Below are positions 13,982 through 62,078 of a DNA stretch of 64,000 nucleotides, piece by piece. Position numbers and translations under genes: made by a program. Below the pieces are notes generated by a model that was given only the letters and a program-made list of their open reading frames with translations, had not been told where the DNA came from and did no database searches. This DNA is from Octopus vulgaris (lineage: Eukaryota): positions 92,690,001-92,754,000 of the forward strand of contig OX597814.1 in NCBI GenBank assembly GCA_951406725.2, in the 5' to 3' direction. Each line of letters starts with the position of its first letter. The first letter of the stretch is position 1.

Positions 13982-14644
13982 GACAGCAATAATAATTCTC
14001 TAAATGAGATATAGACAGTGACTGCTCCATAATATAAGGGACATTAGCCAACTGAATATGGCTAGGGACAGGGCAGGGTGGTGGGGGTGTCACTGTTGCA
14101 TTTAGCCCCAGGCGAACATCAACGTCACCAGATAGGCCGACGCCATCACGGCGTCCTCTATCTTGCAAAGGGAGATCATTCCCCAAGAAGCGGATGCCAC
14201 ACACGGACCTAGGTTTCAAGGTGTATTGCCTATTATCAACGTGTGGTAGGCACCGCTTCTCGACGAACGACACACCGTGCAAGATATATATAAAGATTTT
14301 CAAGTAAATACATTTACTGATTTCGAAAATCTGTTCGACAGCAATAATAATTCTCTAAATGAGATATAGACAGTGACTGCTCCATTATCTTGCACGGTGT
14401 GTCGTTCGTCGAGAAGCGGTGCCTACCACACGTTGATAATAGGCAATACACCTTGAAACCTAGGTCCGTGTGTGGCATCCGCTTCTTGGGGAATGATCTC
14501 CCTTTGCAAGATAGAGGACGCCGTGATGGCGTCGGCCTATCTGGTGACGTTGATGTTCGCCTGGGGCTAAATGCAACAGTGACACCCCCACCACCCTGCC
14601 CTGTCCCTAGCCATATTCAGTTGGCTAATGTCCCTTATATTATT
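13982..14644. repeat. Insertion made of a 49-bp direct repeat plus a ~257-bp segment in both orientations, 12-bp TSD
   Basis: TSD AAGAATATCTTT (13970-13981, 14645-14656); direct repeat 13982-14030 and 14337-14385; inverted copies ~14030-14286 and 14386-14643. Confidence 0.9.
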
Positions 14645-26720: not shown

Positions 26721-27509
26721 CAAGTCTTTGTGTGTGTATCTGAAAATGCTTCAGAAGTTATTCAGGTACTTCTTATTTGTGAATTGTGTTGTAAATGGAA
26801 CTTAAGGCCTGGGAATAACAACATCAAAAGTGTTTGCATGCACACACACACTTAAACATACTTGTGTGTATGTGTGTGAGTGTGTGTGTGTATTTAGATG
26901 TGTGTATGTGCCTGAGTGTGTATGAGTGTATTTGTGTACAAACACACACATGGCACACCGATACATACTCACACACACACACACACACAACCTACCTGTC
27001 ACAAATACATGCACTTCTTGGTTGATTGACAACTACAAGTTAACAAGTTGGCTTGCAAGTATTTTTACACCTTATCCTGGTTACATTCAGTCAACTCCTA
27101 AAATGTGACACAATGAAATACATAATGTGATAAACCACTTGTACAAAATCAGGGCCCATAGCACAGGTGGGTGGTTAAACATCAACCAAGCTAGTCTCAG
27201 ATCACACTGACTTTTCATACCAAAGATAGCTGACGCCACTAAACCTTTTCTTATATTATCTATTTTATGATTAGTCAATGGTTATTTTTTGCTTAATTTT
27301 TTTTATATATTTATATTTTTAGCTTATTTTATCATTTTTTTTTTCTCTTATTAATGAAACAAAATAGCTGTGAAGTCAAAAGGCTGACCTATTTGCCAGA
27401 GAGCTATGAGTTCAACCTCTACACAAACGGCTATATTTTATACATATGAAGTGCATGCATCTATATGCATGTTTATGTGTGAATGGGGGAGATGTGCATG
27501 CATACATGT

Positions 27510-42700: not shown

Positions 42701-45133
42701 AATGCAGGGGGTACACGCGCACGTCATTAGCGTGTACCCCCTCACATGTACATATGCATGCTATTTGGGCTCGATATATGCAACATGGTAGGTTTGTTAA
42801 GGAATTACTCTCACCCATCCGCACGGATGTAATTCTCCGGTGTTTATGTTGAGGCTTATATGTAGCGCTGTGGAGGCGAACGTCGTTGAAATTGTGAATG
42901 AATGGGTGGAGTTGGGAATTGTAACCGGGTGGTGGACTAGTGTTGCTTGGAATTGTGAGTGGAATAGTGTAGTAGTGAGGTAGGCATCGAGAATAGGTTT
43001 GGGTTGCTGCAAGTTGTTTGTTAGAGCTGCTAAGGTGAGATAAAGCTCATAAATGTATATAATGATTTTTCATGGTAGTTTTTTAAAGAATCCATTCATA
43101 ATAAATTTTTTTATGTAGTGTTGGTTTGCCACGTGGATATAGTTTTTAGTTCCATTTATTCTTTTTCTCCATTCATAATTTTAAATGACGTTTACTTTCC
43201 ATGACGCGTATTCTTTTTTTACATAAGTTATTTCTATGGTAACGTAATTTTGGTTTGATTTTTTTAACGGCTAAGAATTTAATTTCACTTTATAATTTGA
43301 AACTGACTTGTAAGTATGTATTTTATTTATCCTTATGTCATATTGTTATTTTTGATAATCTGGTTAATTACGATGTATTTAATGTTGTTTTCATAGGAGT
43401 GTTTATGTATATGAGATTGTGTGTGAGTTTTTAGTTGTATAATTTATTTATCTGTATGAGTGTGGGTGTGTAAATATTGTTGTATATATCGAGTTTAGTG
43501 AGTATGTATATGCGTATATGTGAGGGAGTATATGTATCTGTTGTGTGTGTGTGTTTTGCGTGTGTGTGTGTTTGTGTGTGAATGTGTATATGGGTTTGTT
43601 ATTTAGGTTTTGGGATGTATGTGTTAATTTGTTTGTGTGGGGAGGGAGTGGGTTTTGGTGTATATTGAGGTTTATAAGTTAGTATAGGTATGTGTATAAG
43701 TCGTGGGTCTGTGGTTTACGTGTGTGTATTTGTGTGTGAATGTTTAGGTTAGGGGGATTGCTATATAGGTTTGTTATAGAGTTTAGTAAAGGGAGATTTT
43801 ATCGTTATATGTTTTTGGGAGTTTTGGTTTATCATGGTTTTTTTAGGGAATTCGTGGTAATTTGTCTATTTTCGATGTTGGTTGTTTTATTACATTGTTT
43901 CATTCATAATTTTTGAGTGGTGTTCGTTTTGCCACGTGAATATTGTTTTTAATTCCATTTATTCCATTTCTCCATTCATTAATTTAGAGATGTTCGTTTC
44001 CAGAGCGGTTATACTTTTTATACATATGTTAAGTTCTTGGTAAAGTAATTTTGTTTGGTGTATATGTTGAGGCTTATATGTACTTGTGGGTGTGTGTGAG
44101 TGGGGTGGGTGTTTGTATTTGTTATGGGTGTGTGGTTTACGTGTGTGTTTTTGTGTGTGAATGTATAGGTTAAAGGGATTGCTATATAAGTATGTTATAG
44201 TGTTTAGTAAAGGGAGGTTTTATCATTTCTGTTTTGTGAGTTTTAGCTTATCATGGTAGTTTTATAAAAGAATCCATTCATAATTTTTGTGTTTATTTGT
44301 CTGTGTGGGGTTGAGTGGGTTTTTGGAGTATATGTTGAGGTTTATATGTATGTATTGGTATGTGTAAGTGGTGTGGGTATTTGTATATGTCGTGGGTGTG
44401 TGGTTTACGTGTGTGTATTTGTGTGTGAATTTTTAGGTTAGGGGGATTGCTATATAGGTATGTTTTAGAGTTTAGTAAAGGGAGATTTTATCATTATATG
44501 TTTTTGTGAGTTTTGGTTTATCATGGTAGGTTTGTTAAGGAATTCGTAGTAATTTGTGTATATTTGCGATGTCTGTTGTTTTATTGCATTGTTTCATTCA
44601 TAATTTTTAAGTAGTGTTCGTTTTACCAAGTGAATATAATTTTTAATTCCATTTATTCCATTTCTCCGTTCATAATTTTGAGTGATGTCCGTTTTCTAGA
44701 GCGTGAATGTGGGTTGTATGTGTGTGTGTGTGGGAGTATGAATAAGTATTGTGTTGAAGTATTTAGCTATTTTATTTATTTTTAGTTGCCTAGACGTTTT
44801 TATGTGTATGTATAGGGATATATATATAGGTGTGTGATTTAGTGTATGTAGTTAGATATGGTTATATATAATTAGGTATATGTGTATGGGTGTATATATA
44901 GTTTATTATTATATTATTATTATTTTTTTGTTTTGTTTTATATTTTATATTTTATATTTTATATTTAATTGTTGATAGGTTTATTTTAGTTTATATATTG
45001 TTTATATATTGATTATATATGGATTATATATAGGTTATATAAGGATTATATATTTATATTTTTTCATTCATACTTTAATTATTTTAAAATTATTATTTGT
45101 ATATTTTAAAATATTGATATTTTAGATTGAAGT

Positions 45134-45176
45134 CCACCTGAAGATTGTCGATCAAGACAAGAAACGATTGTAGTGG
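45134..45176 (+). ncRNA. Type-I hammerhead ribozyme motif (right arm)
   Basis: CCAC CUGAAGA UUGUC-GAUCAA-GACAA GAAA C-GAUU-G UA GUGG: complete core, stems I and II, minimal stem III, predicted cleavage after GUA (45172). Confidence 0.82.
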
Positions 45177-45354
45177 CGGTTTTTTTGACTATTTATTAAA
45201 ATTTTATGTATTGATTAAGTCTTTCCTTGTTTGTTTTGCAAAATAGTGGTTTTGTCTCTAATAATATTTTATAATATTTTACTATAAAATTGGATTTAAT
45301 CCTAAATCTGATTTTTTCCATGTAATTTTGGATTTATTCCCTAATATTTATTAT

Positions 45355-45443
<89 letters not shown>

Positions 45444-47039
45444 GATGGGCATCTTTCAGTTTCTGTCTACCAAACCCACTCACAAGGCTTTGGTCAGCCC
45501 GAGGCAATAGTAGAAGACACTTCCCTAAGGTGCCACACAATGGGACTGAACCCAGAACCATGTGGTTGAGAAACAAATTTCTTACCACACAGCCGCTCCT
45601 GCACCTAAAATTACATAAAAATATTTTGAAATACTAAAGAGTATTTCAATAATATTGTCATTGGCTTCAACCACACCCTCCAGACGACTTCAGAATCTCC
45701 TGCAACTATTCCGGATTGTCTCCTTATTTAAATTGACAAATGCTACCATTATCCTTGCCTTCAGTTCATCTTTGGTGTTACAAGGAGTTTTGTTGGTCTC
45801 TCACTCAACTGCACCCCACACATAATAATCAAAGGCCCTGGTTTAGGAAGTTAAGCTTCAAGCATGTATACAGCTAGTATAGATGACAAAAGATGGACAG
45901 TATATGATAAAATAAGTTTATTAACCATCATAAGTTACACACTTTGTCCTATATAGAAATCAAAGGAATTTTCAATAAGCTGCCAATCAGTATACAACTC
46001 ATGATTTAGCAACCTTTGCCATTTTCTAGCTTCTAAGATATATATTTTGGGATAGTCTATATTCTTTCTTCACTCATTTATTATTGCTCTTATTTTAACT
46101 GATGTCTATTGTCTTTTGACACACATCACAGTGACCTCTTCAGTGACACTTTCTATCTTCATGTATGTTCCTGCTCCACTTAATCCATTCACACAGACAA
46201 TGGACATCAGTTAAAATAAGAACAGTAATAAATGAGTGAAGAATGAATATATAATGCGTGTGTTTATTCAGCAAAAAGAAAGAAAACAAAAGACCATCCA
46301 GAAATATAGTAATATCTGTTTCAACACTTGATTTCACATCAGGAATCTTGCAATACAAATTCACACACACACATATTATCAAATATGCATACTCAATACA
46401 TGTATGTTTTGCCTATTTGCCAGTAGGCTGAAATTTGGCATGAGCCCACCAGCAAATAAGCAAAGCACATCTATTGAGTATGTGTGTTCAATAATGTTTA
46501 CAGCACTAGCACAGCTTCTAATTTATATTTGAATACATATATACATGTACACACACTCATGCGAAATCAGACTGGATTGTAGTGCAGCTTCTCAGCTTGC
46601 CAGCTCTGGTCAAGCCATCCAACCTATGTCAGCATGGATGATGGACATTAAATGATGATGATGATAATGATATACATATATTCTTTTATTCTTTTATTTG
46701 TTTCAGTCATTTCAGTTGAACAGGACTTATTCTTTGTAAGCCTAGTACTTATTCTATCGGTCTCTTTTGTTGAACTGCTAAGTTATGGGGGATGTAAGCA
46801 CACCAACATCAGTTGTCAAGCGATGGTGGGGTACAAACATAGAAACACAAACACACACATACATACACACACACACATACGACGATCTTCTTTCAGTTTC
46901 CATCTAATCTACTCAAAAGCCTTTGGTCAGCCCGAGGCTATAGTAGAAGACACTTGCTCATGGTGCCATGCAGCGGGACTGGACCTGGAACCATGTGGTT
47001 GGTAAGCAAGCTACTTACCACACAGCCACTCAAAGATAT

Positions 47040-47400
47040 ATATATATATATATATATAAAACTGAGAATGTGTGTGTGTGTGTGTCTGTCTGTCTGTGTG
47101 TTTCCCTAAAACTTGAGAACTACACAACCAATTTCATTCAAATTTTACACATGCCTTACTTAGGGTCCATGTAATTTCATGGGCAAAAAAATGTTCAACT
47201 TCTTGCCTAGAGCGAGCCCATAGCAATATCATATCTTCTCCACTATTTCAGTATTACGTGTTAAAAGTGAAACAAAAACATTTCTCTATTTTATGTCAGA
47301 TACTTTCAGTTTAACAATAAAAATAATAATAACAATTGAATTATATGTAGTAAGTAATAATTAAAATCAAACTTAAGTATAATATTATCGTAACATAACA
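47040..47400 (+). mobile_element. Helitron-like non-autonomous element, 5' part
   Basis: (TA)n AAACTGAGAAT(GT)n(CTGT)n...CAACCAATTTCATTCAAATTTTACAC; a possible hairpin/CTAG-like end lies at ~58693-58736. Confidence 0.45.
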
Positions 47401-47776
47401 AAAGTAAAAATAGCAATTGGTATAAAATTGCATCAATGACTTGAACTTGAATCAGTGGTTTCACATGAATGGGAATAAATAAAAAATAAAATTTAAGTGC
47501 AGAAATGGAATAGTCCAGATGGAGGTGTGCACGGCTTTTACATTAGATTATTTGCTAATTAGCTAGCATTAAGCATTCTACTGAGTACCGCTTCTGTTAA
47601 TTGCGTTATTTTTCTGTTTGCGTTGTGAGAAAATTGCTGCTCCCATTTAAGAGAGTCGAAGTTGTGAATTTATTGTTTGTACCAACTGCTTTGAACAGTG
47701 CCCGTTGTGAAACGGTGATTTTCGCCCTACGGGGCAGAAAATTTTGTATTATTTGAAATTTGCTACCTTTGAGGTG

Positions 47777-48831
47777 ATGGAGTTCGACTTAACGTCGAAG
47801 GACGATTTTCCCGTGATGGGAAAAGGTGAAACCATGGAAAACCCAGTAACCAAACAGTCATTCTCGGCCGCGGTGGGCGGCGCTATGATAGAGGTCGAAT
47901 TCAAGATCGAACAGCTGTATGAATACAGGAATCTTGTAAAGGTGGAAGGAGGAGAGATAAGGCTGGTACCGCCGCAAGCGAAAGTGCAAGAAATCAAGGA
48001 AAGGATTGTAACTTATAAAGTGTATAGCTTTAAGGAAAAAAAGATTATGGACGCGAAAAACGAAATTGTTGAGAAGTGCCTGTCCCCGGTGTGGGACAGA
48101 ATTCGTCACATCGCGAGAGGCGCACGTAGTGCTACGGTAGAGGTGCACTTCGACACGGCAGAAGTGGCGAAGGAGGTGTCGTCGTTAACCTTAAAAAGCG
48201 ACGACATCATGTTGTTACCCTCGTATATGGGGAAACGAACTGCAAAGTTAGTGGTAGATGACATACCCAGAGGGTACGACATCATGTGGGTGGCAGCGGC
48301 GGTACTACACAACATGGAGCGGGAAATTTCAATTCTGCAAATGAGAAGGAAGGAAGTGGTACGCTGGAAGGGTCAGACCTTGGAACTCCTCGTACAGGCA
48401 GAGAACAAGATCTTGGAGAGCCTGCCTGACAGAATTTTTATGAGGACGGCACGTCCATGAGAGTGTCGGTGGAGGGACGTAGACCCAGATGCTTCAAGTG
48501 TGGAGAGAAGGGTCACGTCCGGTCCAACTGCATTAAGAAAAAAAGAACAGAAGAAACGCCTCCTCAAAGTGTACCTGTCACTGAAGGGGAGGAAACAAGC
48601 AAGAACAACCAAATGAAGAAGACAAGTACGGAAACGAAAACGGATTCAAAAGAACCAATGGACTACACACAAGTCACACACAAAAGAAAAAAGAGAACAC
48701 CCAGGACTCCCCTCCCCAAACAAGGAAAAAAACAACAAACACAGCAGACACACACATTAAACAAATCCCCCAACCCTACCCCCATGGCACTGTTTTCATT
48801 GGAAAACAGTTTGCCAAACCCCTCCCCATAA
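47777..48831 (+). pseudogene. ORF1 (gag-like CCHC protein) of copy A, broken by a 1-nt deletion near 48440
   Basis: ORFs 47744-48460 and 48457-48831 join to match copy B ORF1; TTTTTATGAG here versus TTTTTAATGAG in B; motif CFKCGEKGHVRSNC. Confidence 0.88.
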
Positions 48832-49199
48832 AACAAGACATCAAAAAGTGCATATCGAAAAACGAAAGAATTATAGCCTTTGATGAAAAAAATGAAAAAG
48901 TTTACAAATGCTGCAAACTCGCGAGATTTCCACTGTATAGTAGAACCTCAGATGGGAAGGCGACCGCTCGTTTCGCGAAGGTAGGGGAGAACGAGTGGAA
49001 GGAGGAGGTTCTTCAGGAACACCTGAGGAACCGTCTTATTAGAGATGTAACCAAGGAGGTAATGGAGGGTAAACTGGCAATAACTCCGGCAACCACACCC
49101 ACCCAGAGCCCAGTGGCAACGCCGGTCAAGAACCCTGCAGCAACGGAAGAAAGGGAAGCAGGCAGATTGAAACTGTCATGCTCCCTCTCGCAACCGTGA
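48585..49199 (+). CDS. Open -1 frame overlapping and extending ORF1, copy A (not in ORF track)
   Basis: 615 nt without an internal stop: ...PHGTVFIGKQFAKPLPIKQDIKKCISKNERIIAFDE...EWKEEVLQEHLRNRLIRDV...SLSQP*, ending 28 nt before the ORF2 ATG. Confidence 0.7.
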   Translation, partial: RGGNKQEQPNEEDKYGNENGFKRTNGLHTSHTQKKKENTQDSPPQTRKKTTNTADTHIKQIPQPYPHGTVFIGKQFAKPLPIKQDIKKCISKNERIIAFDEKNEKVYKCCKLARFPLYSRTSDGKATARFAKVGENEWKEEVLQEHLRNRLIRDVTKEVMEGKLAITPATTPTQSPVATPVKNPAATEEREAGRLKLSCSLSQP

Positions 49200-49227
49200 G
49201 TATATACATTTCCTTCTCTCACCCACA

Positions 49228-52200
49228 ATGGCTAAGCTGGGCTGTATAAATGTACGTGGAATGGGGTCGAAACGGAAACAAATTTGTTTCCTGAACGACC
49301 TCACGACACACAGTGTAGATATTGCTATTGCAACCGAGTCCAAGATGAGCGAGACCCAAGCGTTCTCGCCTCTTCTAAATGGTTTCGAGAAATTTATTTC
49401 TCCTAGCCGAGGAAGAGGCAGAGGCGTGGCAGTCTTCATCAGGAAGAGCTTGGACTTGCAGGTAAGTACTGTCTTTCTGGACCCAGAAGGCAGGCTGGTT
49501 GTCCTGGATGTGACTCACGTAAGTAAACAGTCCTTCAGGTTGGTAGCTGTCTACGCCCCGAACGAGGGTAGACAGACGGGTTTTTTCCGGAACCTGGAGC
49601 CCTTTTTAGCGACGTCGAAAACAGTAATCCTAGTAGGGGACTTTAACACTGTCCTTGAAGCGCACATCGACAGTGTTGGCTCAACCAATAGGAAGGGGAA
49701 CCCTAGCCTCAAGGGTCTACTAGAGAGCTTTGATCTAGTGGACCGTTACCGACTGGATGAGCCGAGCGTTCCACAGTGGACGTGGAGTAACAACGACGGC
49801 TCACACAGATCGTATCTAGATAGGATATTTATTAAGAAAAGAGATAAGGATACGTTTAGTTGTCCACAATTTCATATTGTACCTTACTCGGATCACAAAT
49901 TTGTGACGTGTGAGGTGCAATTAGACAAGTGTCATAGACAGGGACCCGGGTACTGGAAGCTGAACAAGGCTATTTTGAATTGTGAAGACTTCCGTACCCG
50001 GATTAAGGTGTTAGTTCAGAGGGCATTGTGTGGCACCATCATTAACAATAGATGGTGGCACGCCCTCAAAAGAGCCATTCGTTTAGAGTCCGTCAGATTT
50101 AGCAATCAGCTAAGGATAGATAGGGCTAGTCTAGAGGGCGATTTAGTCAAGAATCTAGACGAGGCAATGGAAGCTGGCTCTGCATCCGGAGTGTTGGCGG
50201 CAAGGACGGTATTGTACCGTCACCTTAACTCCAAGTACGAAGGTTGCAGAGTCAGAGCTAAGCTGCGTGCTGGGAAACGAGAAGGTATTAACGTGGCCGG
50301 ATGGGCCCGTCGTGTGGAGAGTAAGAGAGGCAATAGAGCCTCAATTAAATCTTTGACTGACGAACAGGGACAAAAGATCTATGGACAGGAGGAGATGCAA
50401 AAGTTTCTTCACCAGCATTTCGCTCGCGTGTTCGGGGGTGGTGGTTCGCTGGATCGGGGGAGGGCCTTAAAGGACTTCCTGGCCGGCGGACCGCGGCTCG
50501 CGGGGCGTGAAGTGGAGTGCTGTGAGGGAGCGATCACTCCCGCGGAGATAAAGGAGATACTGGCCGGATGCGCCGGGGAGAAGTCGCCGGGGTTGGATGG
50601 TCTGCCCTATGAGTTTTACCAAAGTATGCCGGACTTGTTCGGGGGAATACTGGCAGACGTCTACACGAACTGGCAGCAGAATGGGAGAATCCCCAGTTCT
50701 GTAAGCCGGGGAGTGGTGACGCTAATCCAGAAAGACCCGAGCAAGGGGGATAATATTAGTAACTACAGGCCCATAACTCTACTTAATGTAGAGTTAAAGA
50801 TTCTGGCCAAGGTGTTAGCAAAAAGGTTGACGGTTGTCGTGGAGAAACTTGTAGGGAGAGCACAGACATGTGCAATTCCAGGCAGGTCGATCCAGGACAA
50901 TCTTCACCTTATACGCTACACCTTAGATAGGGTGGGTAAATTAGCCGGCAAAGGTGGGGTAATGGTCCATTTAGACCAAAGTAAAGCCTTCGATAGGGTA
51001 GACCATGGGTACCTGGCGACGGTCCTCGAAGCGACTGGGCTGGGCCCTGAATTTCGCGGGTGGATCTCCGCTATGTATAGCGGCATCAAGTCCACCGTCC
51101 AGATAAACGGTTACCTAACGGAACCGTTTTCGATCAAGTGTTCAGTGCGTCAGGGGTGCCCCTTGTCACCACTTTTGTACGTATTGGCTCTTGAGCCACT
51201 GCTGCGAAAGTTGGAGAGGCTGGGGAGTAACTCGGATGAAATCGGAGGTGGGAGGACGGTTACTGCTTACGCGGATGACGTCACCCTCATCGTGTCCAAA
51301 GAGGCCCAACTACCTTGTGTGGAGGAGGTTATCAGAGGATACGAGGCGGTGGCAGGAGCAAAGGTTAACAAGGACAAATCGGTTGGCTTGCGCCTCGGCA
51401 CCTGGAGGAGCAAGCCGATATCGTCCAGTGTCGTGGGACACTGGACGGATGGCCCTGTTAAGTTGCTGGGAGTTTGGTTTGGACCAGACTCCCAAACGGA
51501 GAAGAACTGGAGCGAGGTGACGAGCAGGGTGGAGGCCATAGTACGGACCTGGTCCGGAAGGTCTCTGTCCCTGAAAGGAAGGGCGGAGGTGGTGCAGATG
51601 TTTATTGCATCTGTAATCACCTACCGCCTGACCGTTGTCCCTTGCCCCGATTCATGGCTTAACAAGTTGGAACGAATCCTTTTCCGCTTTTTGTGGAAAG
51701 GAGGAAAGCCACTTGTGAGACGATCCGTTTGCTGCCAAGAACCGTTAAAGGGCGGGTTAGGGATGCCTTGGTTGATGATGCGCAGACATGCGTTGAGGCT
51801 AAGGCACCTCTGGCACCACCTGGAGGGTGATAAGGTGTGGAGTCCGCTGGCAGAGGGATTTTTCCCGAGACCGGCCTCCTTAGTTAATTTTAAACCCGTT
51901 TACATCAAAAGATGGAAACTGACTCCATGGCAAAAAGAGTGCCGACAGGCACTCACGCTGATCCACAAGACGGGTAAGGCCGGCTGCGGAAATACCACCT
52001 CGGTATTTTATAGAGGGCTGGTGGAGGTAAAAAATGACGACGTCCTAGGAGGGGCTCTGGGGTTTGATGAAGACCAGCTCGCCAACCTGTTTAAAAAAAC
52101 TTTCAGGTCGGGGTATTTGGATAATTTCCAAAGATCCCTGGCCTGGCAGTGCTACAGGAATGCTTTACCTGTTCGCGAGAAGTTATCGCGGCACGGAGTT

Positions 52201-52617
52201 CAAGTGCCACCGACGTGTCCAAGGTGCGGGTTGGACGATGAAACCGTCCAGCACGCCTTTGTTCACTGTCGGAAGTTGTCCGACTTGATAAGTTACGCAG
52301 AACACGTGTTGTCCCATCTGGGACGAGTACAGCTGTCGGCTGAGTCTATGATTAAGATGATACCGCCAACTGGACTCTCGAAGGAAGGTGAGGCATGTTT
52401 CCACTGCACGGTGGCAGTGGTAAAGGAATGCATGTGGAGAACGAGAATGGAAGGAGCCGCGATAGGGTCCTTCATCTCCGGACCCGGCTTGCTCACTTAC
52501 TTCAGATATCATCTGAAGAGCAAAATGGGGCTGGAGAAGAGGACCCTGCCGCGGGGTGTGTACGAGAAAAGATGGAAGGAAGTAGAAAGAAAGGTGGGTG
52601 TGAGAAACCCAGCTTGA
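49228..52617 (+). CDS. ORF2: apurinic-like endonuclease, reverse transcriptase and C-terminal zinc finger, 1129 aa, intact
   Basis: NVRG, TES, VYAP, GDFN, YLDRIF, SDH (APE); GYWKLN; KSPGLDGLP, YRPITLLN, DQSKAFDRV, VRQGCPLSP, YADD (RT); CPRC..ETVQHAFVHC. Confidence 0.97.
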   Translation: MAKLGCINVRGMGSKRKQICFLNDLTTHSVDIAIATESKMSETQAFSPLLNGFEKFISPSRGRGRGVAVFIRKSLDLQVSTVFLDPEGRLVVLDVTHVSKQSFRLVAVYAPNEGRQTGFFRNLEPFLATSKTVILVGDFNTVLEAHIDSVGSTNRKGNPSLKGLLESFDLVDRYRLDEPSVPQWTWSNNDGSHRSYLDRIFIKKRDKDTFSCPQFHIVPYSDHKFVTCEVQLDKCHRQGPGYWKLNKAILNCEDFRTRIKVLVQRALCGTIINNRWWHALKRAIRLESVRFSNQLRIDRASLEGDLVKNLDEAMEAGSASGVLAARTVLYRHLNSKYEGCRVRAKLRAGKREGINVAGWARRVESKRGNRASIKSLTDEQGQKIYGQEEMQKFLHQHFARVFGGGGSLDRGRALKDFLAGGPRLAGREVECCEGAITPAEIKEILAGCAGEKSPGLDGLPYEFYQSMPDLFGGILADVYTNWQQNGRIPSSVSRGVVTLIQKDPSKGDNISNYRPITLLNVELKILAKVLAKRLTVVVEKLVGRAQTCAIPGRSIQDNLHLIRYTLDRVGKLAGKGGVMVHLDQSKAFDRVDHGYLATVLEATGLGPEFRGWISAMYSGIKSTVQINGYLTEPFSIKCSVRQGCPLSPLLYVLALEPLLRKLERLGSNSDEIGGGRTVTAYADDVTLIVSKEAQLPCVEEVIRGYEAVAGAKVNKDKSVGLRLGTWRSKPISSSVVGHWTDGPVKLLGVWFGPDSQTEKNWSEVTSRVEAIVRTWSGRSLSLKGRAEVVQMFIASVITYRLTVVPCPDSWLNKLERILFRFLWKGGKPLVRRSVCCQEPLKGGLGMPWLMMRRHALRLRHLWHHLEGDKVWSPLAEGFFPRPASLVNFKPVYIKRWKLTPWQKECRQALTLIHKTGKAGCGNTTSVFYRGLVEVKNDDVLGGALGFDEDQLANLFKKTFRSGYLDNFQRSLAWQCYRNALPVREKLSRHGVQVPPTCPRCGLDDETVQHAFVHCRKLSDLISYAEHVLSHLGRVQLSAESMIKMIPPTGLSKEGEACFHCTVAVVKECMWRTRMEGAAIGSFISGPGLLTYFRYHLKSKMGLEKRTLPRGVYEKRWKEVERKVGVRNPA

Positions 52618-53051
52618 TCATGGAGGAGAGAGAGGAAGTGGAAGCTGCAGGGCCTCACAAATTGCCGGGGTGTAAAAACGCCAGTGAGACGACAAGGTTA
52701 CCTACTGTTGTTTGCTATACTAGTTAAGCAAAGGTTAATATTTTTATAACGAATTTAAACAATTTTTAAACGATTCTCTTAAATGTTTTTGTATGTATGT
52801 CCTGTATTTGTAATTCTGTGTACCGATTTTTATAATCGTAATAAAGAAATATCTACTGAGTACCGCTTCTGTTAATTGCGTTATTTTTCTGTTTGCGTTG
52901 TGAGAAAATTGCTGCTCCCATTTAAGAGAGTCGAAGTTGTGAATTTATTGTTTGTACCAACTGCTTTGAACAGTGCCCGTTGTGAAACGGTGATTTTCGC
53001 CCTACGGGGCAGAAAATTTTGTATTATTTGAAATTTGCTACCTTTGAGGTG

Positions 53052-54107
53052 ATGGAGTTCGACTTAACGTCGAAGGACGATTTTCCCGTGATGGGAAAAG
53101 GTGAAACCATGGAAAACCCAGTAACCAAACAGTCATTCTCGGCCGCGGTGGGCGGCGCTATGATAGAGGTCGAATTCAAGATCGAACAGCTGTATGAATA
53201 CAGGAATCTTGTAAAGGTGGAAGGAGGAGAGATAAGGCTGGTACCGCCGCAAGCGAAAGTGCAAGAAATCAAGGAAAGGATTGTAACTTATAAAGTGTAT
53301 AGCTTTAAGGAAAAAAAGATTATGGACGCGAAAAACGAAATTGTTGAGAAGTGCCTGTCCCCGGTGTGGGACAGAATTCGTCACATCGCGAGAGGCGCAC
53401 GTAGTGCTACGGTAGAGGTGCACTTCGACACGGCAGAAGTGGCGAAGGAGGTGTCGTCGTTAACCTTAAAAAGCGACGACATCATGTTGTTACCCTCGTA
53501 TATGGGGAAACGAACTGCAAAGTTAGTGGTAGATGACATACCCAGAGGGTACGACATCATGTGGGTGGCAGCGGCGGTACTACACAACATGGAGCGGGAA
53601 ATTTCAATTCTGCAAATGAGAAGGAAGGAAGTGGTACGCTGGAAGGGTCAGACCTTGGAACTCCTCGTACAGGCAGAGAACAAGATCTTGGAGAGCCTGC
53701 CTGACAGAATTTTTAATGAGGACGGCACGTCCATGAGAGTGTCGGTGGAGGGACGTAGACCCAGATGCTTCAAGTGTGGAGAGAAGGGTCACGTCCGGTC
53801 CAACTGCATTAAGAAAAAAAGAACAGAAGAAACGCCTCCTCAAAGTGTACCTGTCACTGAAGGGGAGGAAACAAGCAAGAACAACCAAATGAAGAAGACA
53901 AGTACGGAAACGAAAACGGATTCAAAAGAACCAATGGACTACACACAAGTCACACACAAAAGAAAAAAGAGAACACCCAGGACTCCCCTCCCCAAACAAG
54001 GAAAAAAACAACAAACACAGCAGACACACACATTAAACAAATCCCCCAACCCTACCCCCATGGCACTGTTTTCATTGGAAAACAGTTTGCCAAACCCCTC
54101 CCCATAA
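53052..54107 (+). CDS. ORF1 of copy B (CCHC zinc-knuckle protein)
   Basis: First ATG at 53052 (MEFDLTSKDDFP...); single CX2CX4HX4C knuckle and basic tail. Confidence 0.88.
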   Translation: MEFDLTSKDDFPVMGKGETMENPVTKQSFSAAVGGAMIEVEFKIEQLYEYRNLVKVEGGEIRLVPPQAKVQEIKERIVTYKVYSFKEKKIMDAKNEIVEKCLSPVWDRIRHIARGARSATVEVHFDTAEVAKEVSSLTLKSDDIMLLPSYMGKRTAKLVVDDIPRGYDIMWVAAAVLHNMEREISILQMRRKEVVRWKGQTLELLVQAENKILESLPDRIFNEDGTSMRVSVEGRRPRCFKCGEKGHVRSNCIKKKRTEETPPQSVPVTEGEETSKNNQMKKTSTETKTDSKEPMDYTQVTHKRKKRTPRTPLPKQGKKQQTQQTHTLNKSPNPTPMALFSLENSLPNPSP

Positions 54108-54475
54108 AACAAGACATCAAAAAGTGCATATCGAAAAACGAAAGAATTATAGCCTTTGATGAAAAAAATGAAAAAGTTTACAAATGCTGCAAACTCGCGA
54201 GATTTCCACTGTATAGTAGAACCTCAGATGGGAAGGCGACCGCTCGTTTCGCGAAGGTAGGGGAGAACGAGTGGAAGGAGGAGGTTCTTCAGGAACACCT
54301 GAGGAACCGTCTTATTAGAGATGTAACCAAGGAGGTAATGGAGGGTAAACTGGCAATAACCCCGGCAACCACACCCACCCAGAGCCCAGTGGCAACGCCG
54401 GTCAAGAACCCTGCAGCAACGGAAGAAAGGGAAGCAGGCAGATTGAAACTGTCATGCTCCCTCTCGCAACCGTGA
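53861..54475 (+). CDS. Open -1 frame extending ORF1, copy B
   Basis: Same frame as 48585-49199; the one difference I saw (ACT/ACC, Thr) is synonymous in this frame. Confidence 0.7.
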   Translation, partial: RGGNKQEQPNEEDKYGNENGFKRTNGLHTSHTQKKKENTQDSPPQTRKKTTNTADTHIKQIPQPYPHGTVFIGKQFAKPLPIKQDIKKCISKNERIIAFDEKNEKVYKCCKLARFPLYSRTSDGKATARFAKVGENEWKEEVLQEHLRNRLIRDVTKEVMEGKLAITPATTPTQSPVATPVKNPAATEEREAGRLKLSCSLSQP

Positions 54476-54503
54476 GTATATACATTTCCTTCTCTCACCC
54501 ACA

Positions 54504-57500
54504 ATGGCTAAGCTGGGCTGTATAAATGTACGTGGAATGGGGTCGAAACGGAAACAAATTTGTTTCCTGAACGACCTCACGACACACAGTGTAGATATTG
54601 CTATTGCAACCGAGTCCAAGATGAGCGAGACCCAAGCGTTCTCGCCTCTTCTAAATGGTTTCGAGAAATTTATTTCTCCTAGCCGAGGAAGAGGCAGAGG
54701 CGTGGCAGTCTTCATCAGGAAGAGCTTGGACTTGCAGGTAAGTACTGTCTTTCTGGACCCAGAAGGCAGGCTGGTTGTCCTGGATGTGACTCACGTAAGT
54801 AAACAGTCCTTCAGGTTGGTAGCTGTCTACGCCCCGAACGAGGGTAGACAGACGGGTTTTTTCCGGAACCTGGAGCCCTTTTTAGCGACGTCGAAAACAG
54901 TAATCCTAGTAGGGGACTTTAACACTGTCCTTGAAGCGCACATCGACAGTGTTGGCTCAACCAATAGGAAGGGGAACCCTAGCCTCAAGGGTCTACTAGA
55001 GAGCTTTGATCTAGTGGACCGTTACCGACTGGATGAGCCGAGCGTTCCACAGTGGACGTGGAGTAACAACGACGGCTCACACAGATCGTATCTAGATAGG
55101 ATATTTATTAAGAAAAGAGATAAGGATACGTTTAGTTGTCCACAATTTCATATTGTACCTTACTCGGATCACAAATTTGTGACGTGTGAGGTGCAATTAG
55201 ACAAGTGTCATAGACAGGGACCCGGGTACTGGAAGCTGAACAAGGCTATTTTGAATTGTGAAGACTTCCGTACCCGGATTAAGGTGTTAGTTCAGAGGGC
55301 ATTGTGTGGCACCATCATTAACAATAGATGGTGGCACGCCCTCAAAAGAGCCATTCGTTTAGAGTCCGTCAGATTTAGCAATCAGCTAAGGATAGATAGG
55401 GCTAGTCTAGAGGGCGATTTAGTCAAGAATCTAGACGAGGCAATGGAAGCTGGCTCTGCATCCGGAGTGTTGGCGGCAAGGACGGTATTGTACCGTCACC
55501 TTAACTCCAAGTACGAAGGTTGCAGAGTCAGAGCTAAGCTGCGTGCTGGGAAACGAGAAGGTATTAACGTGGCCGGATGGGCCCGTCGTGTGGAGAGTAA
55601 GAGAGGCAATAGAGCCTCAATTAAATCTTTGACTGACGAACAGGGACAAAAGATCTATGGACAGGAGGAGATGCAAAAGTTTCTTCACCAGCATTTCGCT
55701 CGCGTGTTCGGGGGTGGTGGTTCGCTGGATCGGGGAGGGCCTTAAAGGACTTCCTGGCCGGCGGACCGCGGCTCGCGGGGCGTGAAGTGGAGTGCTGTGA
55801 GGGAGCGATCACTCCCGCGGAGATAAAGGAGATACTGGCCGGATGCGCCGGGGAGAAGTCGCCGGGGTTGGATGGTCTGCCCTATGAGTTTTACCAAAGT
55901 ATGCCGGACTTGTTCGGGGGAATACTGGCAGGCGTCTACACGAACTGGCAGCAGAATGGGAGAATCCCCAGTTCTGTAAGCCGGGGAGTGGTGACGCTAA
56001 TCCAGAAAGACCCGAGCAAGGGGGATAATATTAGTAACTACAGGCCCATAACTCTACTTAATGTAGAGTTAAAGATTCTGGCCAAGGTGTTAGCAAAAAG
56101 GTTGACGGTTGTCGTGGAGAAACTTGTAGGGAGAGCACAGACATGTGCAATTCCAGGCAGGTCGATCCAGGACAATCTTCACCTTATACGCTACACCTTA
56201 GATAGGGTGGGTAAATTAGCCGGCAAAGGTGGGGTAATGGTCCATTTAGACCAAAGTAAAGCCTTCGATAGGGTAGACCATGGGTACCTGGCGACGGTCC
56301 TCGAAGCGACTGGGCTGGGCCCTGAATTTCGCGGGTGGATCTCCGCTATGTATAGCGGCATCAAGTCCACCGTCCAGATAAACGGTTACCTAACGGAACC
56401 GTTTTCGATCAAGTGTTCAGTGCGTCAGGGGTGCCCTTGTCACCACTTTTGTACGTATTGGCTCTTGAGCCACTGCTGCGAAAGTTGGAGAGGCTGGGGA
56501 GTAACTCGGATGAAATCGGAGGTGGGAGGACGGTTACTGCTTACGCGGATGACGTCACCCTCATCGTGTCCAAAGAGGCCCAACTACCTTGTGTAGAGGA
56601 GGCTATCAGAGGATACGAGGCGGTGGCAGGAGCAAGGGTTAACAAGGACAAATCGGTTGGCTTGCGCCTCGGCACCTGGAGGAGCAAGCCGATATCGTCC
56701 AGTGTCGTGGGACACTGGACGGATGGCCCTGTTAAGTTGCTGGGAGTTTGGTTTGGACCAGACTCCCAAACGGAGAAGAACTGGAGTGAGGTGACGAGCA
56801 AGGTGGAGGCCATAGTACGGACCTGGTCCGGAAGGTCTCTGTCCTTGAAAGGAAAGGCGGAGGTGGTACAGATGTTCATTGCATCTGTAATCACCTACCG
56901 CCTGACCGTCGTCCCTTGCCCCGATTCATGGCTTAACAAGTTGGAACGAATCCTTTTCCGCTTTTTGTGGAAAGGAGGAAAGCCACTTGTGAGACGCTCC
57001 GTTTGCTGCCAAGAACCGTTAAAGGGTGGGTTAGGGATGCCTTGGTTGATGATGCGCAGACATGCGTTGAGGCTAAGGCACCTCTGGCACCACCTGGAGG
57101 GTGATAAGGTGTGGAGTCCGCTGGCAGAGGGTTTTTTCCCGAGACCGGCCTCCTTAGTGAATTTTAAACCCGGTTACATCAAAAGATGGAAACTGACTCC
57201 ATGGCAAAAGGAGTGCCGACAGGCACTCACGCTGATCCACAGGACGGGCAAGGCCGGCTGCGGAAATACCACCTCGGTATTTTATAGAGGGCTGGTGGAA
57301 GCAAAAAATGACGACGTCCTAGGAGGGGCTCTGGGGTTTGATGAAGACCAGCTTGCCAACCTGTTTAAAAAAACTTTCAGGTCGGGGTATTTGGATAATT
57401 TCCAAAGATCCCTGGCCTGGCAGTGCTACAGGAATGCTTTACCTGTTCGCGAGAAGTTATCGCGGCACGGAGTTCAAGTGCCACCGACGTGTCCAAGGTG

Positions 57501-57891
57501 CGGGTTGGACGATGAAACCGTCCAGCACGCTTTTGTTCACTGTCGGAAGTTGTCCGACTTGATAAGTTACGCAGAACACGTGTTATCGCATCTGGGACGA
57601 GTACAGCTGTCGGCTGAGTCTATGATTAAGATGATACCGCCAACTGGACTCTCGAAGGAAGGTGAGGCATGTTTTCACTGCACGGTTGCAGTGGTAAAGG
57701 AATGCATGTGGAGAACGAGAATGGAAGGAGCCGCGATAGGGTCCTTTGTCTCCGGCCCCAGCTTGCTCACCTACTTCAGATATCATCTGAAGAGCAAAAT
57801 GGGGCTGGAGAAGAGGGCCTTGCCGCGGGGTGTGTATGAGAAAAGATGGAAGGAAGTGGAAAGAAAGGTGGGTGTGAGAAACCCAGCTTGA
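54504..57891 (+). pseudogene. ORF2 of copy B, split by two 1-nt homopolymer deletions
   Basis: G5 to G4 at ~55732-55735 and C4 to C3 at ~56434-56436 relative to copy A; pieces 54504-55745, 55787-56596, 56413-57891. Confidence 0.9.
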
Positions 57892-58136
57892 CCATGGAGG
57901 AGAGAGGGGAAGTGGAAGCTGCAGGGCCTCATAAATTGCCGGGGTGTAAAAGCTCCAGTGAGACTACAAGTTCACCTACTGTTGTTTGCTATACTAGTTA
58001 TGCAAAGGTTAATATTTTATAACGAATTGAAACATAATTTTTAATCGAATCTCTTAAATGTTTTTGTATGTATGTCCTGTATTTGTCCTTCTGTGTATCG
58101 ATTTTTATAATCTTAATAAAGAAATATCTACTGAGT

Positions 58137-58560
58137 GCCGCTGTTAGTTTATTTCTGATCCATAAAGGCCTATAGCTTCAACAGAGTACTGCTTTTTGGT
58201 TTACCGTAAGGTTTGTTGTTATTATTATTTCTGTTTAACCATTGTTATCACGTTTGTTGGTTCCTTGTAAGGGAAGCATTGTTGTGTTGCGTTTGTTATA
58301 TAATTGTAAACCGTAACCCTCCCCCTTTGGGAGAAGGAGCTTTGGTTATTGTTTAAAAATTGAATTGTGTCCCTGTTTGGGGAAATTGACAATATTTTCA
58401 CTGTTTACACGGAAGTATTTTTGTTAAAATGTCTTCAATAGAAGAAAGTCCAAAAACGAATTTCGCTGCAGCCATCGGATTGTAGCCACACTTCTATACA
58501 AGAGGGAGGACAAGATACAATTGATCAAAATTACAAGAGACGGGCTAACAATTCCAGTCT
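58137..58560 (+). mobile_element. Probable 5' remnant of a diverged Tx1-like relative
   Basis: Starts GCCGCTGTTAG (A/B start ACCGCTTCTGTTAA), T-rich leader, then ATG 58429 MSSIEESPKTNFAAAIG (A/B: MENPVTKQSFSAAVGG). Confidence 0.5.
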
Positions 58561-59619
58561 GTTATATATTTTGAGTATTGTTATCACTAGCGATATCAAG
58601 ATATAACTTTGTATTTTGTATTTTATGTGTAGATGTATATATATATAGATGTACATGTAATATGTACACATATATATACACATATATACATGCACTAGCA
58701 CTATGACCCGGCAACGACAGGTCTTTAATGCTTGTACATATATATATATATATATATATATGTATGCATGTATGTATATATGTTTGTTTGTTTTTACTAT
58801 TTTCAGTATATGGAATTTTACACCATGTGTATACTTACACACACACTCATATATATGTGTTTATGTATATATACATATAAATGCATATATGTGTGTATAA
58901 AGAAATTTATTTATATTATATGTATGCATCTGTGTGTGTCTGTGTATGTAGGAACATACACACACATGCATAGACATGCACTCAAAAAACATTTACTCAT
59001 CCATTTATATATATATATATATATACACATGCATACATACATGCATACACACATGCATACACACATGCATACATACATACATACATACATACATACATAC
59101 ATACATACATACATACATACATACATACATACATACATGCATGCATGCATAAACAATGCATAGTATATCCACATTCACATTCAATTGGTGAATCAAAATT
59201 TGGGAGTGTTAATAAGAGAATAAGCAATATATATCTTGTTTGATTCTTTACAAATTTGTGCTTATCCATGTGAATAAGACACAGAAAATCACTCATGCAT
59301 ACACCCACATAAACACTTACCACATACACAATACACACATATATACTTTAAATCTAACAATATAATAATAGTAAGGTTAATACTAACTTTCAATGCGAGG
59401 GTCTCTATGACTTGGGTCATTCCCTTAGAAATAGCAGTCAAAATCTCTCTTAAATTACTCTCCACCATTTTCCAAGGAAGAATGAGACACATTGGATAAT
59501 GTGGTCTGAGATACACAATCCTTGAGTTAGAGATGAGAAGGATGGGGTCAGAAAACCTTTGATCAGAGATCTGATAAGATCAGAGCTCATCTAATATAAC
59601 ACAATAAGGACATGCAAAC

Positions 59620-62078
59620 AGTGTTGAAGGCTACTGACCAGATCTGTGGATGGTGCAAAGTCCCCTCTCGACCTAAGTTAATGTAGTGCTGGAACAATGT
59701 AGTTGACAGGACCATTAGGGAAAAGAAACAGATATAGAAGGACTGGAAGAATGGTGGTAGCAGGGAACTGCATCAGATCACAAGAAGGGAAGCTAGGAGA
59801 CAGGTTTACTTAGACAGAGGGGAAGCAGATAGGAAAAATTTGCAAGTGTTCTGTGTTGAGAGGACCAAAGACTTAAAGTGTTTCGTGTTGCAAGACTGTG
59901 TGAGAAAGAATCGTGATGTCATAGGAGAGAAATGTGTCCACATGGATGATGACTCACTTGCATTCAATGAGGTAGCAGAGAGACTTGGAGACACCACTAT
60001 GGAAGGTTGCTAAATGAAGAGAATGAATGGGAGAAAGAGAGTCTGCCAAAAGTCGACCCAACAGGGGGATCAGCTATCCGAATTGACAGTACCTTAGTAG
60101 ATAAAGCAATTAAGAGTATGAAGACAGAGAAAGCATCCGGCCCATCAGGAATCATCGCAGAGATGCTTGAAATATCTGGTGGAGTAGGCTATAGTCTAGT
60201 CACCCTTATAGTCAATCAGGTGATACATGAAAGAGTCATACCCAATGACTGGTGTAGTAACACCATAGTCAACTGCTACAAAGGTAAAGGTGACACATTA
60301 GATACAAATAATTACAGAGGTATCAAGTTGTTGGATCAGGTAATGAAAGTCACAGAGAGGGTCATAGCCCAACTAATTAGGGAGAGAGTTAGTTTAGATG
60401 AGATGCAGTTTGGGTTTGTGCCAGGGAAAAGCACCACTGATGCTATATTTCTGGTAAGACAGCTGCAGGAGAAATACCTAACCAAAGATAAATCTCTGTA
60501 CTTGGCATTTGTTGACATGGAGAAACCCTTTGACAGGGTTTCCCAATCCTTTATCTGGTGGTCAATATGGAAACTAGGGATGGATGAGTGGATAGTGAGA
60601 GTGGTACAAGCCGTGTACAAGGATGCTGTCAGTAAAGTGAGGGTTGACAACAAGTATAGTAAAGAATTCTGGGTAGGAGTAGAGGTATGCCAAGGATCAG
60701 CCCTCAGCCTCCTCTTATTCATCATAGTTCGCCAGGCAATAACAGAGTAATTCAAGACAGGATGCCCCTGGGAGCTCCTCTATGCTGATGACTTTGCTCT
60801 AATAGCTGAGTCACTATCAGAACTAGAGGAGAAGTTTCAGGTGTGGAAGCAAGGTCTAGAATCGAAGGGACTTAGAGTCAATCTAGCAAAAACCAAAGTC
60901 TCAGTAAGTAGGAAGGCAGACAAATCACAAATCCCTTCAGGTAGATGGCCCTGCTCAATCTATAGAAAAGGTGTAGGTAGAAACTCCATAAGATGTGCCC
61001 AATGTAATCTATAGACACATAGGAGGTGCAGCAATATCAAAGGGAGGCTAACTGGGAGGTGATTGTTTTTGTGTGTGGCAGATGCACAGGGGCAATGAAC
61101 ACTGAAAATGTGCAGAAAACAGCTTCTGTCACATGCCAGGGGAAAAAACTAGAAGTAGTTGATAGCTTTTGTTGCTTAGGTGACCAAGTCAGGAGCAGGG
61201 GTGGATAAAGCTCCTACCTCTGCTAGTAACAAAGGATATCTCATTCAGAATGAAAGGTAGACCATATGATGCATGTGTGCGAACAGCCATGCTACACAGC
61301 AGTGAAACATGGGCTCTGACTGCTGAGGACATGCATAAGCTTGCAAGAAATGAAGCTAGTATGCTTTGCTGGATGTGTAATGTCAGTGTGCATACACAAC
61401 AGAGTGTAAGTGCCCTGAGAAAAATGTTGGACATAAGAAGCATCAGCTGTGGTGTGCAAGAGAGACGACTGTGTTGATGTGGTCATGTGTTGCATATGGA
61501 TTAAGACAGCTGTGTGAAAAAGTGTCACACCCTAACAGTGGAGGGAACTTGTGGAAGAGGTAAACCCAGGAAGACCTGGGAGGAGATGATGAAGCATGAC
61601 TTTTGAATGGTGGGCCTCACGGAGCAATGACAAGTGACTGAGACCTATGGAGATATGCTGTGCTTGAGACCCAGCAAGCCAAATGAGACTGTAGCCATGG
61701 CCTATACCAGTGTCACATAACTGACTCATATAAGAGTACCCATCAATCATTGGGCAACATACTATGCTTGAGAAGACCTGCTGAATCAAGTGAAATCATT
61801 ATCATTCGAGTGTGGTCCTTGCCAGTGCCACATAAAATGCACCATTTGAGCATGGTCAATGCCAGTACTGCCTGACTGGCCTCTGTGCCAGTGGTATATA
61901 AAAAGCACCCACTGCACTCTTGGAATGGTTGGCATTAGGAAGGGTATCCAGCTGTAGGAACCTTGCCAGGTCAAATTGGAGCTTGATGCAGCCTTCTGGT
62001 TTGCCAGTCCTCAGTCAAACCGTCCAACCCATGCCAGCATGGAAAGCAGACGTTAAACGATGATGATGATGATGATGA
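59620..62078 (+). mobile_element. 5'-truncated decayed RTE-clade LINE with (GAT)n tail, same family as 24315-26720
   Basis: ORF 60007-60750 RT region, ELLYADD near 60780, tail GACGTTAAAC(GAT)n. Confidence 0.92.

Follow-up and report, generated by a model that had tools for sequence, protein, structure and literature searches.

We identified in an Octopus vulgaris genome assembly an array that we read, with a probability of about 0.7, as a two-copy stack of a LINE lineage that is guided to RNA polymerase II (Pol II) start sites, borrows the promoter upstream, and re-enters the same site. The array lies in a 64-kb window, by which we mean the whole stretch of DNA that was analyzed (64,000 nucleotides; contig OX597814.1, positions 92,690,001 to 92,754,000). 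It consists of two Tx1-like LINEs, both full length and 5.26 kb each, arranged head to tail within a Helitron-like element. Its features, in window coordinates, are as follows.

47036 to 47576, + strand: left arm of a non-autonomous Helitron-like element, "short" variant, whose ends are seen in empty copies
47578 to 47592, + strand: left target-site duplication, 15 bp, with the putative transcription start at the A at 47580
47593 to 52852, + strand: Tx1-like LINE copy A, of the youngest subfamily
47777 to 49199, + strand: ORF1 of copy A, with two RRM-like domains, a CCHC knuckle, and a small C-terminal domain
49228 to 52617, + strand: ORF2 of copy A, 1129 aa, intact, with APE endonuclease, reverse transcriptase, and zf-RVT domains
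52840 to 52845, + strand: polyadenylation signal of copy A, 7 nt upstream of the middle duplication
52853 to 52867, + strand: middle target-site duplication, at the junction of copies A and B
52868 to 58127, + strand: Tx1-like LINE copy B, with a young 5' part and an older-type 3' third
53052 to 54475, 54504 to 57891, and 58115 to 58120, + strand: ORF1, ORF2, and polyadenylation signal of copy B
58128 to 58142, + strand: right target-site duplication, with one A>G change relative to the other two
58143 to 58560, + strand: older Tx1 relative inside the Helitron, a 5' UTR and an internally deleted ORF1 piece
58561 to 58734, + strand: right end of the Helitron-like element, with a sub-terminal hairpin from 58705 and a decayed CTAG end

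The first-pass annotation had described two full-length head-to-tail elements with a 10-mer at three junctions and no poly(A), and this description held. The 10-mer lies at 47577, 52852, and 58127, with a period of 5275, and does not occur again in the window; each unit carries AATAAA 7 nt before its end and lacks poly(A). The target-site duplication is 15 bp rather than 10 bp, which explains most of the resemblance that had been reported between the first bases of the element and the right flank. The remainder of that claim stood, in that the 5' end of an older Tx1 relative is present downstream. This piece has an ATG at 58429 and a deletion near 58477, and in the longer variant of the Helitron its ORF1 portion is 33% identical to ORF1 over 160 aa (E = 6e-28). 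Searches of the window with Rfam and ARAGORN gave no matches; the target is therefore no known RNA gene.

The proteins agree with the annotated Tx1-like identity. ORF2 has the L1-like layout, with an N-terminal APE, an RT, and a C-terminal cysteine domain, zf-RVT (PF03372, PF00078, and PF13966), and its closest solved structure is human L1 ORF2p (E = 1e-67). ORF1, which is 474 aa long in intact copies, is of the Tx1 type, with RRM domains and a CCHC knuckle (PF00098) rather than the L1 coiled coil. It was modeled as a tandem RRM-like fold (mean pLDDT, 62), and a ZCCHC3-RBD cluster appeared at rank 18 among the structural matches (score, 0.90). Its C-terminal domain had no match in an Atlas search, and the fold predicted for it was unusable (pLDDT, 44). 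Pairing ORF1 with a stand-in animal TBP core scored 0.00, a result that counts neither for nor against binding. The single ORF1 homolog found is an Octopus sinensis protein nearly identical to the ORF1 of a sister family, and all relatives recovered with HMMER are at most 55% identical. In a quick tree, which holds no named Tx1 references (Tx1L, Keno, or Kibi), the octopus families form one clade among other proteins, and the promoter-targeting families group as one clade with a support of 100. The element is a Tx1-like LINE; the label rests on architecture and on features that we take to be those of the Tx1 clade in the L1 group. The ORF1 frame of copy A is interrupted at 48439 and 48686, both within homopolymer runs; at each of these positions, contigs from three public runs have one extra A, and the breaks are likely assembly errors. 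ORF2 of copy B has single-base gaps near 55731 and 56433.

An array of this kind could have arisen by a single insertion followed by tandem duplication, by copying of the Helitron, or by assembly of two haplotypes in tandem. An alignment of copies A and B over 5278 columns shows 59 differing columns, and because 54 of these lie in the last 1.55 kb, only 5 differing columns fall in the 5' 3.7 kb, as duplication would predict; unequal exchange may also have lengthened stacks, and the array is known from the assembly alone. However, among 35 aligned copies, the nearest to A is one on C27 (8 substitutions) and the nearest to B is one on C9 (2 substitutions), compared with 53 between A and B. Since the closest match of each lies on a different chromosome rather than beside it, A and B represent two insertions rather than a duplication, as the annotated claim of repeated independent insertion at one site implies. 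On many chromosomes there are stacks that combine different subfamilies. The first-pass annotation had reasoned that unrelated flanks around other copies would point to a duplicated single insertion, but the same flanks recur at other Helitron loci. In 45 locus pairs, the Helitron flanks differ by 0.8 to 4.3% (mean, 2.9%) where the inserts differ by less than 0.5% (mean, 0.17%), indicating that the LINE insertions postdate the spread of the Helitron. The two divergences are also uncorrelated, contrary to what Helitron-mediated copying would give. We consider this group of explanations very improbable.

The host of the array could be reconstructed from its other copies. Both flanks are halves of one Helitron-like element of about 1.15 kb that is empty at many loci. 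It has the anatomy of a non-autonomous Helitron, with a 5' TC, a sub-terminal hairpin, and a 3' CTAG, and it lies between an A and a T with no duplication; both ends are visible in the empty copies L007, L008, L009, L010, L013, L015, L022, and L026. The termini of the window copy have decayed, and its 5' TC has turned into an (AT)n run. The element carries the 5' UTR and partial ORF1 of the older Tx1 relative. A 16-mer spanning the target has 76 matches in the genome and a reversed control has 1, so that recurrence of the target is not due to chance. The LINE family is present in 12 such Helitrons, with 1 to 6 copies each and a site that is the same to the base. For the youngest LINE subfamily, this Helitron is the main landing pad: 17 of the 21 3' ends bearing the subfamily's tail are at the Helitron site.

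Two variants of the Helitron can be distinguished. In the long variant, present at 29 loci, a TATA-like box precedes the cut by 30 to 31 nt. The 47-bp piece that holds this box is missing from the short variant, which is present at 45 loci, the window among them; the window copy does not match the TATA consensus (3 mismatches) and offers just an A/T run at −30 to −24. Two of the 29 long-variant loci hold the LINE family, while kin 5' ends of a second type are present at 9 and those of a third type at 1; one more long-type locus contains a 1.67-kb ORF1-only kin, and at least four different kin 5' ends lie downstream of the same Helitron site. Through the Helitron, a predicted start site has reached at least 74 loci. 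We found no native, non-Helitron source of its promoter among the 29 long-variant loci. We also considered whether an old allele of the Helitron lineage accounts for the G in the right duplication; this was unsupported, as the sole other copy with G is a different variant.

The first-pass annotation had inferred that the family is specific for this sequence and targets the 5' ends of its own kin. On that model, the endonuclease recognizes a 15-mer that is itself a kin 5' end, hence the self-stacking. The identity of the site at 12 loci and the various kin 5' ends that follow it in the Helitron are in its favor, as is the presence of kin ORF1 or ORF2 downstream of three other targets. Neither inference survived a survey of other copies, and we now regard the model as improbable and largely refuted. 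A 3'-end pattern yielded 72 copies, a 5' pattern yielded 47, and a protein search yielded 150 relatives; we examined most of the non-Helitron loci of the first two lists and about 60 of the 150 relatives, calling duplications by matching the 3' flank to the sequence upstream, with promoter motifs ignored. Instead of one target sequence, the lineage occupies at least 25 target classes, and unrelated targets carry duplications of 13 to 25 bp. The endonuclease varies at 0 to 5 of 241 residues among copies in Helitron, RTE-like, and single-copy targets: an identical enzyme is found in an unrelated duplication on C2, and one that differs by 2 residues is found in an RTE-like promoter. A stack of at least 10 copies on C9, which runs into an assembly gap, occupies yet another sequence. 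Many targets are without kin downstream, and many of the downstream neighbors are instead RTE-like LINEs, Penelope elements, or U2 or zinc-finger genes. The kin that are often found downstream are most likely earlier entrants into the same start sites.

The targets themselves are diverse. Three related classes are the 5' ends of LINEs that we take to be RTE elements, with a 1015-aa APE-RT ORF in the sense direction. Three others are Penelope-like repeats. In one of these (L316), RVT_1 scored above its cutoff and GIY-YIG scored 22.2 bits against a cutoff of 22.6, both in sense; the other two were named from repeat anatomy and from a presumed hammerhead motif of such repeats, which Rfam did not call. 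Further targets are sites 2 to 4 kb upstream of C2H2 zinc-finger exons, the 5' region of a CR1-like LINE, U2 genes, and single-copy sites that are candidate promoters. Stacks comprise 2 to 4 copies at RTE-like promoters, 2 to 3 at Penelope-like repeats, and 2 at U2. At gathering score, U2 was the only Rfam match in the target flanks; an e-value scan of the flanks gave microsatellite-driven miRNA noise and no hammerhead. In a more distant kin family, for which we examined 20 regions covering part of 85 matches, ORF1-only forms also insert into each other's interiors.

What these unrelated sequences have in common is the position of the cut relative to a promoter element. TATAWAWR, with at most one mismatch, starts at −32 to −28 from the cut in 17 of the 25 target classes, compared with 1.35 expected from the same flanks; this count uses one representative per class, and the classes are not all independent, because the Helitron enters twice (short and long) and there are related classes among the RTE-like (three) and Penelope-like (two) targets. 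The −32 to −28 interval was picked after the first set (10 of 15 classes), and among loci fetched after the hypothesis had been written the count was 7 of 10 (0.68 expected). The profile peaks at −30 over a background of 5 to 6%, and the tail probability is 3e-9 even for a background of 15%. The test covers loci with a duplication, leaving aside those without one (for example, C1:20.5, C17:1.48, C27:8.5, C28:20.8, L151, L155, L157, and L159), ordinary repeats, stacks of ORF1-only kin (L211, L222, L225, and L229), and 60% relatives that target microsatellites (L206 to L208). Several observations count against a start-site reading. Eight of the 25 classes fail the strict test, the TATA-less variant in the window is occupied all the same, and the youngest copy on C9 is the third of ten. 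For the TATA-less variant, either the site is still a start site by way of an initiator, or homology alone is enough once a donor resides in the Helitron.

Several loci bear on the distance more directly. Two 5'-truncated copies, of 213 and 552 bp, sit at TATA+30, and their truncation rules them out as donors; no TATA-like sequence is seen at a truncated copy of 688 bp on C8, and among short 5'-truncated copies of a more distant relative, 2 of 7 have a TATA at the position. On C14, one RTE-like promoter carries a 6-nt deletion; there, the cut has moved 6 to 7 nt along the sequence, and its distance from the TATA box (−30/−31) has been kept. At U2 genes, the Rfam model begins at the duplicated base. 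A sister family (ORF2 80 to 81% identical) cuts 2 to 3 nt before U2 nucleotide 1 in two clusters with differing upstream DNA, duplicating nucleotides from about −3 to +14 and leaving the U2 gene complete on the downstream side. A Penelope repeat contains an element whose ORF2 is near-identical to that of the U2-targeting family and whose 42-nt tail is the same. Across unrelated sequences, then, the distance to the promoter element is fixed, with exceptions that include the window's own site, and the cut lies in the sense direction 0 to 3 nt before known (U2) or predicted start sites. Transcription in the Helitron would start at the A at 47580, since the 5' junction on C27 has an extra tag that begins at the equivalent A and the offset is the same as at U2 genes; such 5' tags are cited from single junctions.

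A second layer of specificity lies in homology between the RNA and its target. Subfamily and target class are associated. Among 31 sites picked as distinct, insertions of one subfamily agree at 2.76 of the 4 nt directly 3' of the element, compared with 1.76 after shuffling (P ≤ 5e-5), and the U2 and Penelope targets of one subfamily have 6 of the first 7 nt in common. These observations would also fit an explanation based on target memory without a protein tether, in which a read-through tail and 5' tag of the RNA anneal to accessible matching DNA, a subfamily returns to the class of its donor, and promoters are enriched because a promoter-less element is copied only from start sites. Occupancy of the Helitron by the LINE family agrees with this, being no lower in the short variant (10 of 45 loci) than in the TATA-bearing long variant (2 of 29; Fisher P = 0.11). 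There is precedent in R1Bm and SART1, for which target-derived bases of the RNA are reported to anneal to the nicked strand, and accurate priming by R1Bm is described as requiring the downstream target sequence (PMC7265360). Memory by itself, however, leaves unexplained about ten unrelated single sites that have 2 to 4 nt in common with the donor and a TATA box at −30, the two truncated non-donor copies at TATA+30, and the shift of the cut on C14. We judge it unlikely as a complete account.

The junctions also suggest how a stack grows. On C9, the G of the upstream flank is present in 7 promoter-side junctions and absent from 2 distal ones, from which it follows that the stack grew toward the promoter at least once. 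The promoter-proximal copy is of the youngest type in the window and on C5 and C27. In 3 of 12 Helitron loci, including the window, the left duplications follow the family norm and the right one departs from them (P about 0.015), and duplication variants of the same kind occur in 10 of 25 empty Helitron sites; the left duplication therefore looks RNA-templated, as far as these junctions tell.

We propose the following route for insertion guided to Pol II start sites. The ribonucleoprotein would be tethered to the Pol II pre-initiation complex, or would nick DNA opened by that complex. Transcription would begin within the left duplication, giving an RNA with a short 5' tag of target sequence that could template the new 5' junction; the shared upstream promoter suggested by the first-pass annotation is, in our judgment, likely. 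Because 7 nt separate the poly(A) signal from the end of the element, the RNA would end in target-derived bases. These may anneal to the nicked strand, which would yield precise 3' ends without poly(A) and favor start sites resembling that of the donor. The promoter and start site would stay intact on the left, where the next copy could enter, as the junction polarity on C9 suggests. It is reasonably likely that the lineage as a whole addresses the Pol II pre-initiation complex, inserting within about 3 nt of +1 on TATA, TCT, and snRNA promoters, and that, having lost its own promoter and remembering its last target in its RNA ends, it is a parasite of Helitron, RTE, Penelope, and host-gene promoters. 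Start sites other than those of U2 are predicted and the tether is putative, and the surviving copies have been filtered by selection.

The choice of target by LINEs is credited mainly to the sequence specificity of the endonuclease, and the transcription-factor-guided exception, TRE5, uses Pol III genes. If our reading is correct, a LINE at the Pol II +1 represents a new targeting rule and a Pol II counterpart of Ty3 and TRE5. It would explain how one Tx1 lineage switches among U2 genes, DNA transposons, and retroelements with an unchanged endonuclease, and other Tx1 families described as specific for transposable elements would be worth re-reading as promoter specific. Insertion between a promoter and its gene, together with a poly(A) signal, would silence downstream transposons, U2 copies, and octopus C2H2 zinc-finger genes. 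The rule can be tested directly, since some young copies are intact, and a start-site-seeking enzyme for target-primed reverse transcription (TPRT) would serve as a tool for promoter mapping or knock-in.

Several known systems resemble parts of this one. Tx1-clade elements reside in other transposons in Xenopus (Tx1L in Tx1D) and in crocodilians (Tx1-Mar and SINEU-3 in Mariner-N4_AMi) (PMC4494074). Tx1L and Tx1-Mar share with the octopus elements an APE-RT LINE at one position of a non-autonomous DNA transposon, tandems that sandwich the duplication, and possible transcription from the host flank, but they are described as having one target family, set mainly by endonuclease sequence specificity (PMC4494074), whereas the octopus lineage has a near-constant endonuclease and many promoters with a common position. 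Keno, a Tx1-clade element with APE, and Utopia likewise insert into U2 genes, sometimes in tandem; their reported insertion point is between nucleotides 38 and 39, with the downstream U2 starting from nucleotide 39 (PMC4640811), unlike the cut of the octopus sister family 2 to 3 nt before nucleotide 1, which sets that family apart from Keno. Targeting by Dada has been attributed to sequence (PMC8869645). A 2026 annotation of octopus repeats lists 13 recently active L1-Tx1 families, and the words "promoter" and "nested" are absent from its main text (PMC13282606). Within the open-access literature, a scope that leaves out Repbase, subscription journals, and supplements, we found no LINE at Pol II start sites.

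The P element, Tf1, and MLV prefer Pol II promoters. P-element dimers are described as products of double insertion (PMC5932611). These three are DNA or LTR elements whose insertions are spread over tens to hundreds of bases, whereas the octopus LINE inserts within about 3 nt of +1. Like R1, the octopus lineage inserts twice to form a tandem and retains the target between the copies (PMC5932611); like R2, it would have no promoter of its own and be cotranscribed with its host (PMC2881922); and like HeT-A, it forms head-to-tail arrays that would use an upstream promoter (PMC5537684). R1 and R2, however, have single sequence targets in rDNA, and HeT-A occupies chromosome ends. The HeT-A promoter is the 3' UTR of its neighbor, whereas the tail of the upstream octopus copy has no TATA at −30. 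HeT-A RNAs carry 5' tags.

Ty3 and Tj1 insert at Pol III start sites, and TRE5-A of Dictyostelium is described as a TFIIIB-tethered LINE whose ORF1 binds TBP, Brf1, and Bdp1 (PMC5911963). The octopus lineage shares with all three a position-specific insertion, which in those systems is set by the basal transcription machinery (PMC5911963). Ty3 and Tj1, however, are LTR elements at Pol III genes, and TRE5 inserts 44 to 54 bp upstream in the opposite orientation (PMC5911963), whereas the octopus LINE inserts in sense, at the predicted start of Pol II promoters, by way of a putative tether. The octopus lineage most likely combines placement like that of Ty3 or TRE5 with priming and promoter borrowing like those of R1 or R2, and is a member of neither group.

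The RTE-like LINEs targeted by this lineage (loci L100, L119-L121 and L129) have a 5' end made up of ~600-bp repeats in tandem, with a TATA box and a copy of the target site in every repeat. In these arrays, a single unit is filled and the adjacent units are empty. In the U2 snRNA gene arrays (L204, L231-L233 and L310-L311, in clusters on chromosomes C3 and C23), one or two LINEs of 5.5 kb lie between the promoter and the gene in some genes. The repeat units of the C3 array also contain fragments of the same Helitron that hosts the two copies in the window. Nine loci (L277, L278, L280, L283, L284, L286, L287, L292 and L293) form a Helitron subfamily in which the same start site is followed by a different Tx1-relative 5' end, which runs into the ORF1 remnant common to the Helitrons.

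Five loci (L211, L222, L226, L229 and L103) hold non-autonomous Tx1 relatives of 1.2 to 1.8 kb that have ORF1 alone and build stacks of their own; some are positioned ~30 nt downstream of a TATA box, and others are inserted inside each other. At L225 (G000 C6:120.419-120.424 Mb), a 159-bp unit that corresponds to a Tx1 relative's 3' tail is present in ~28 tandem copies. This array is a LINE end turning into a satellite.

The window also contains other repeats:

14029-14643, palindromic element of 615 bp, self-complementarity of 91 to 92%
24692-26730 and 59866-61908, RTE-like LINE fragments, both decayed, in mutually opposite orientation, ~80% identity
39577-42071 and 42784-45277, inverted repeat of 2.5 kb, arms 99.9% identical, spacer of 712 bp

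The palindrome is MITE-like. The inverted repeat either arose very recently as a foldback or reflects an assembly artefact.

In a quick tree, the promoter-targeting clade adjoins relatives inserted in (TC)n microsatellites at L206, L207 and L208, with endonuclease identity of ~60%. The microsatellite siting of these relatives resembles that of Kibi and Koshi.
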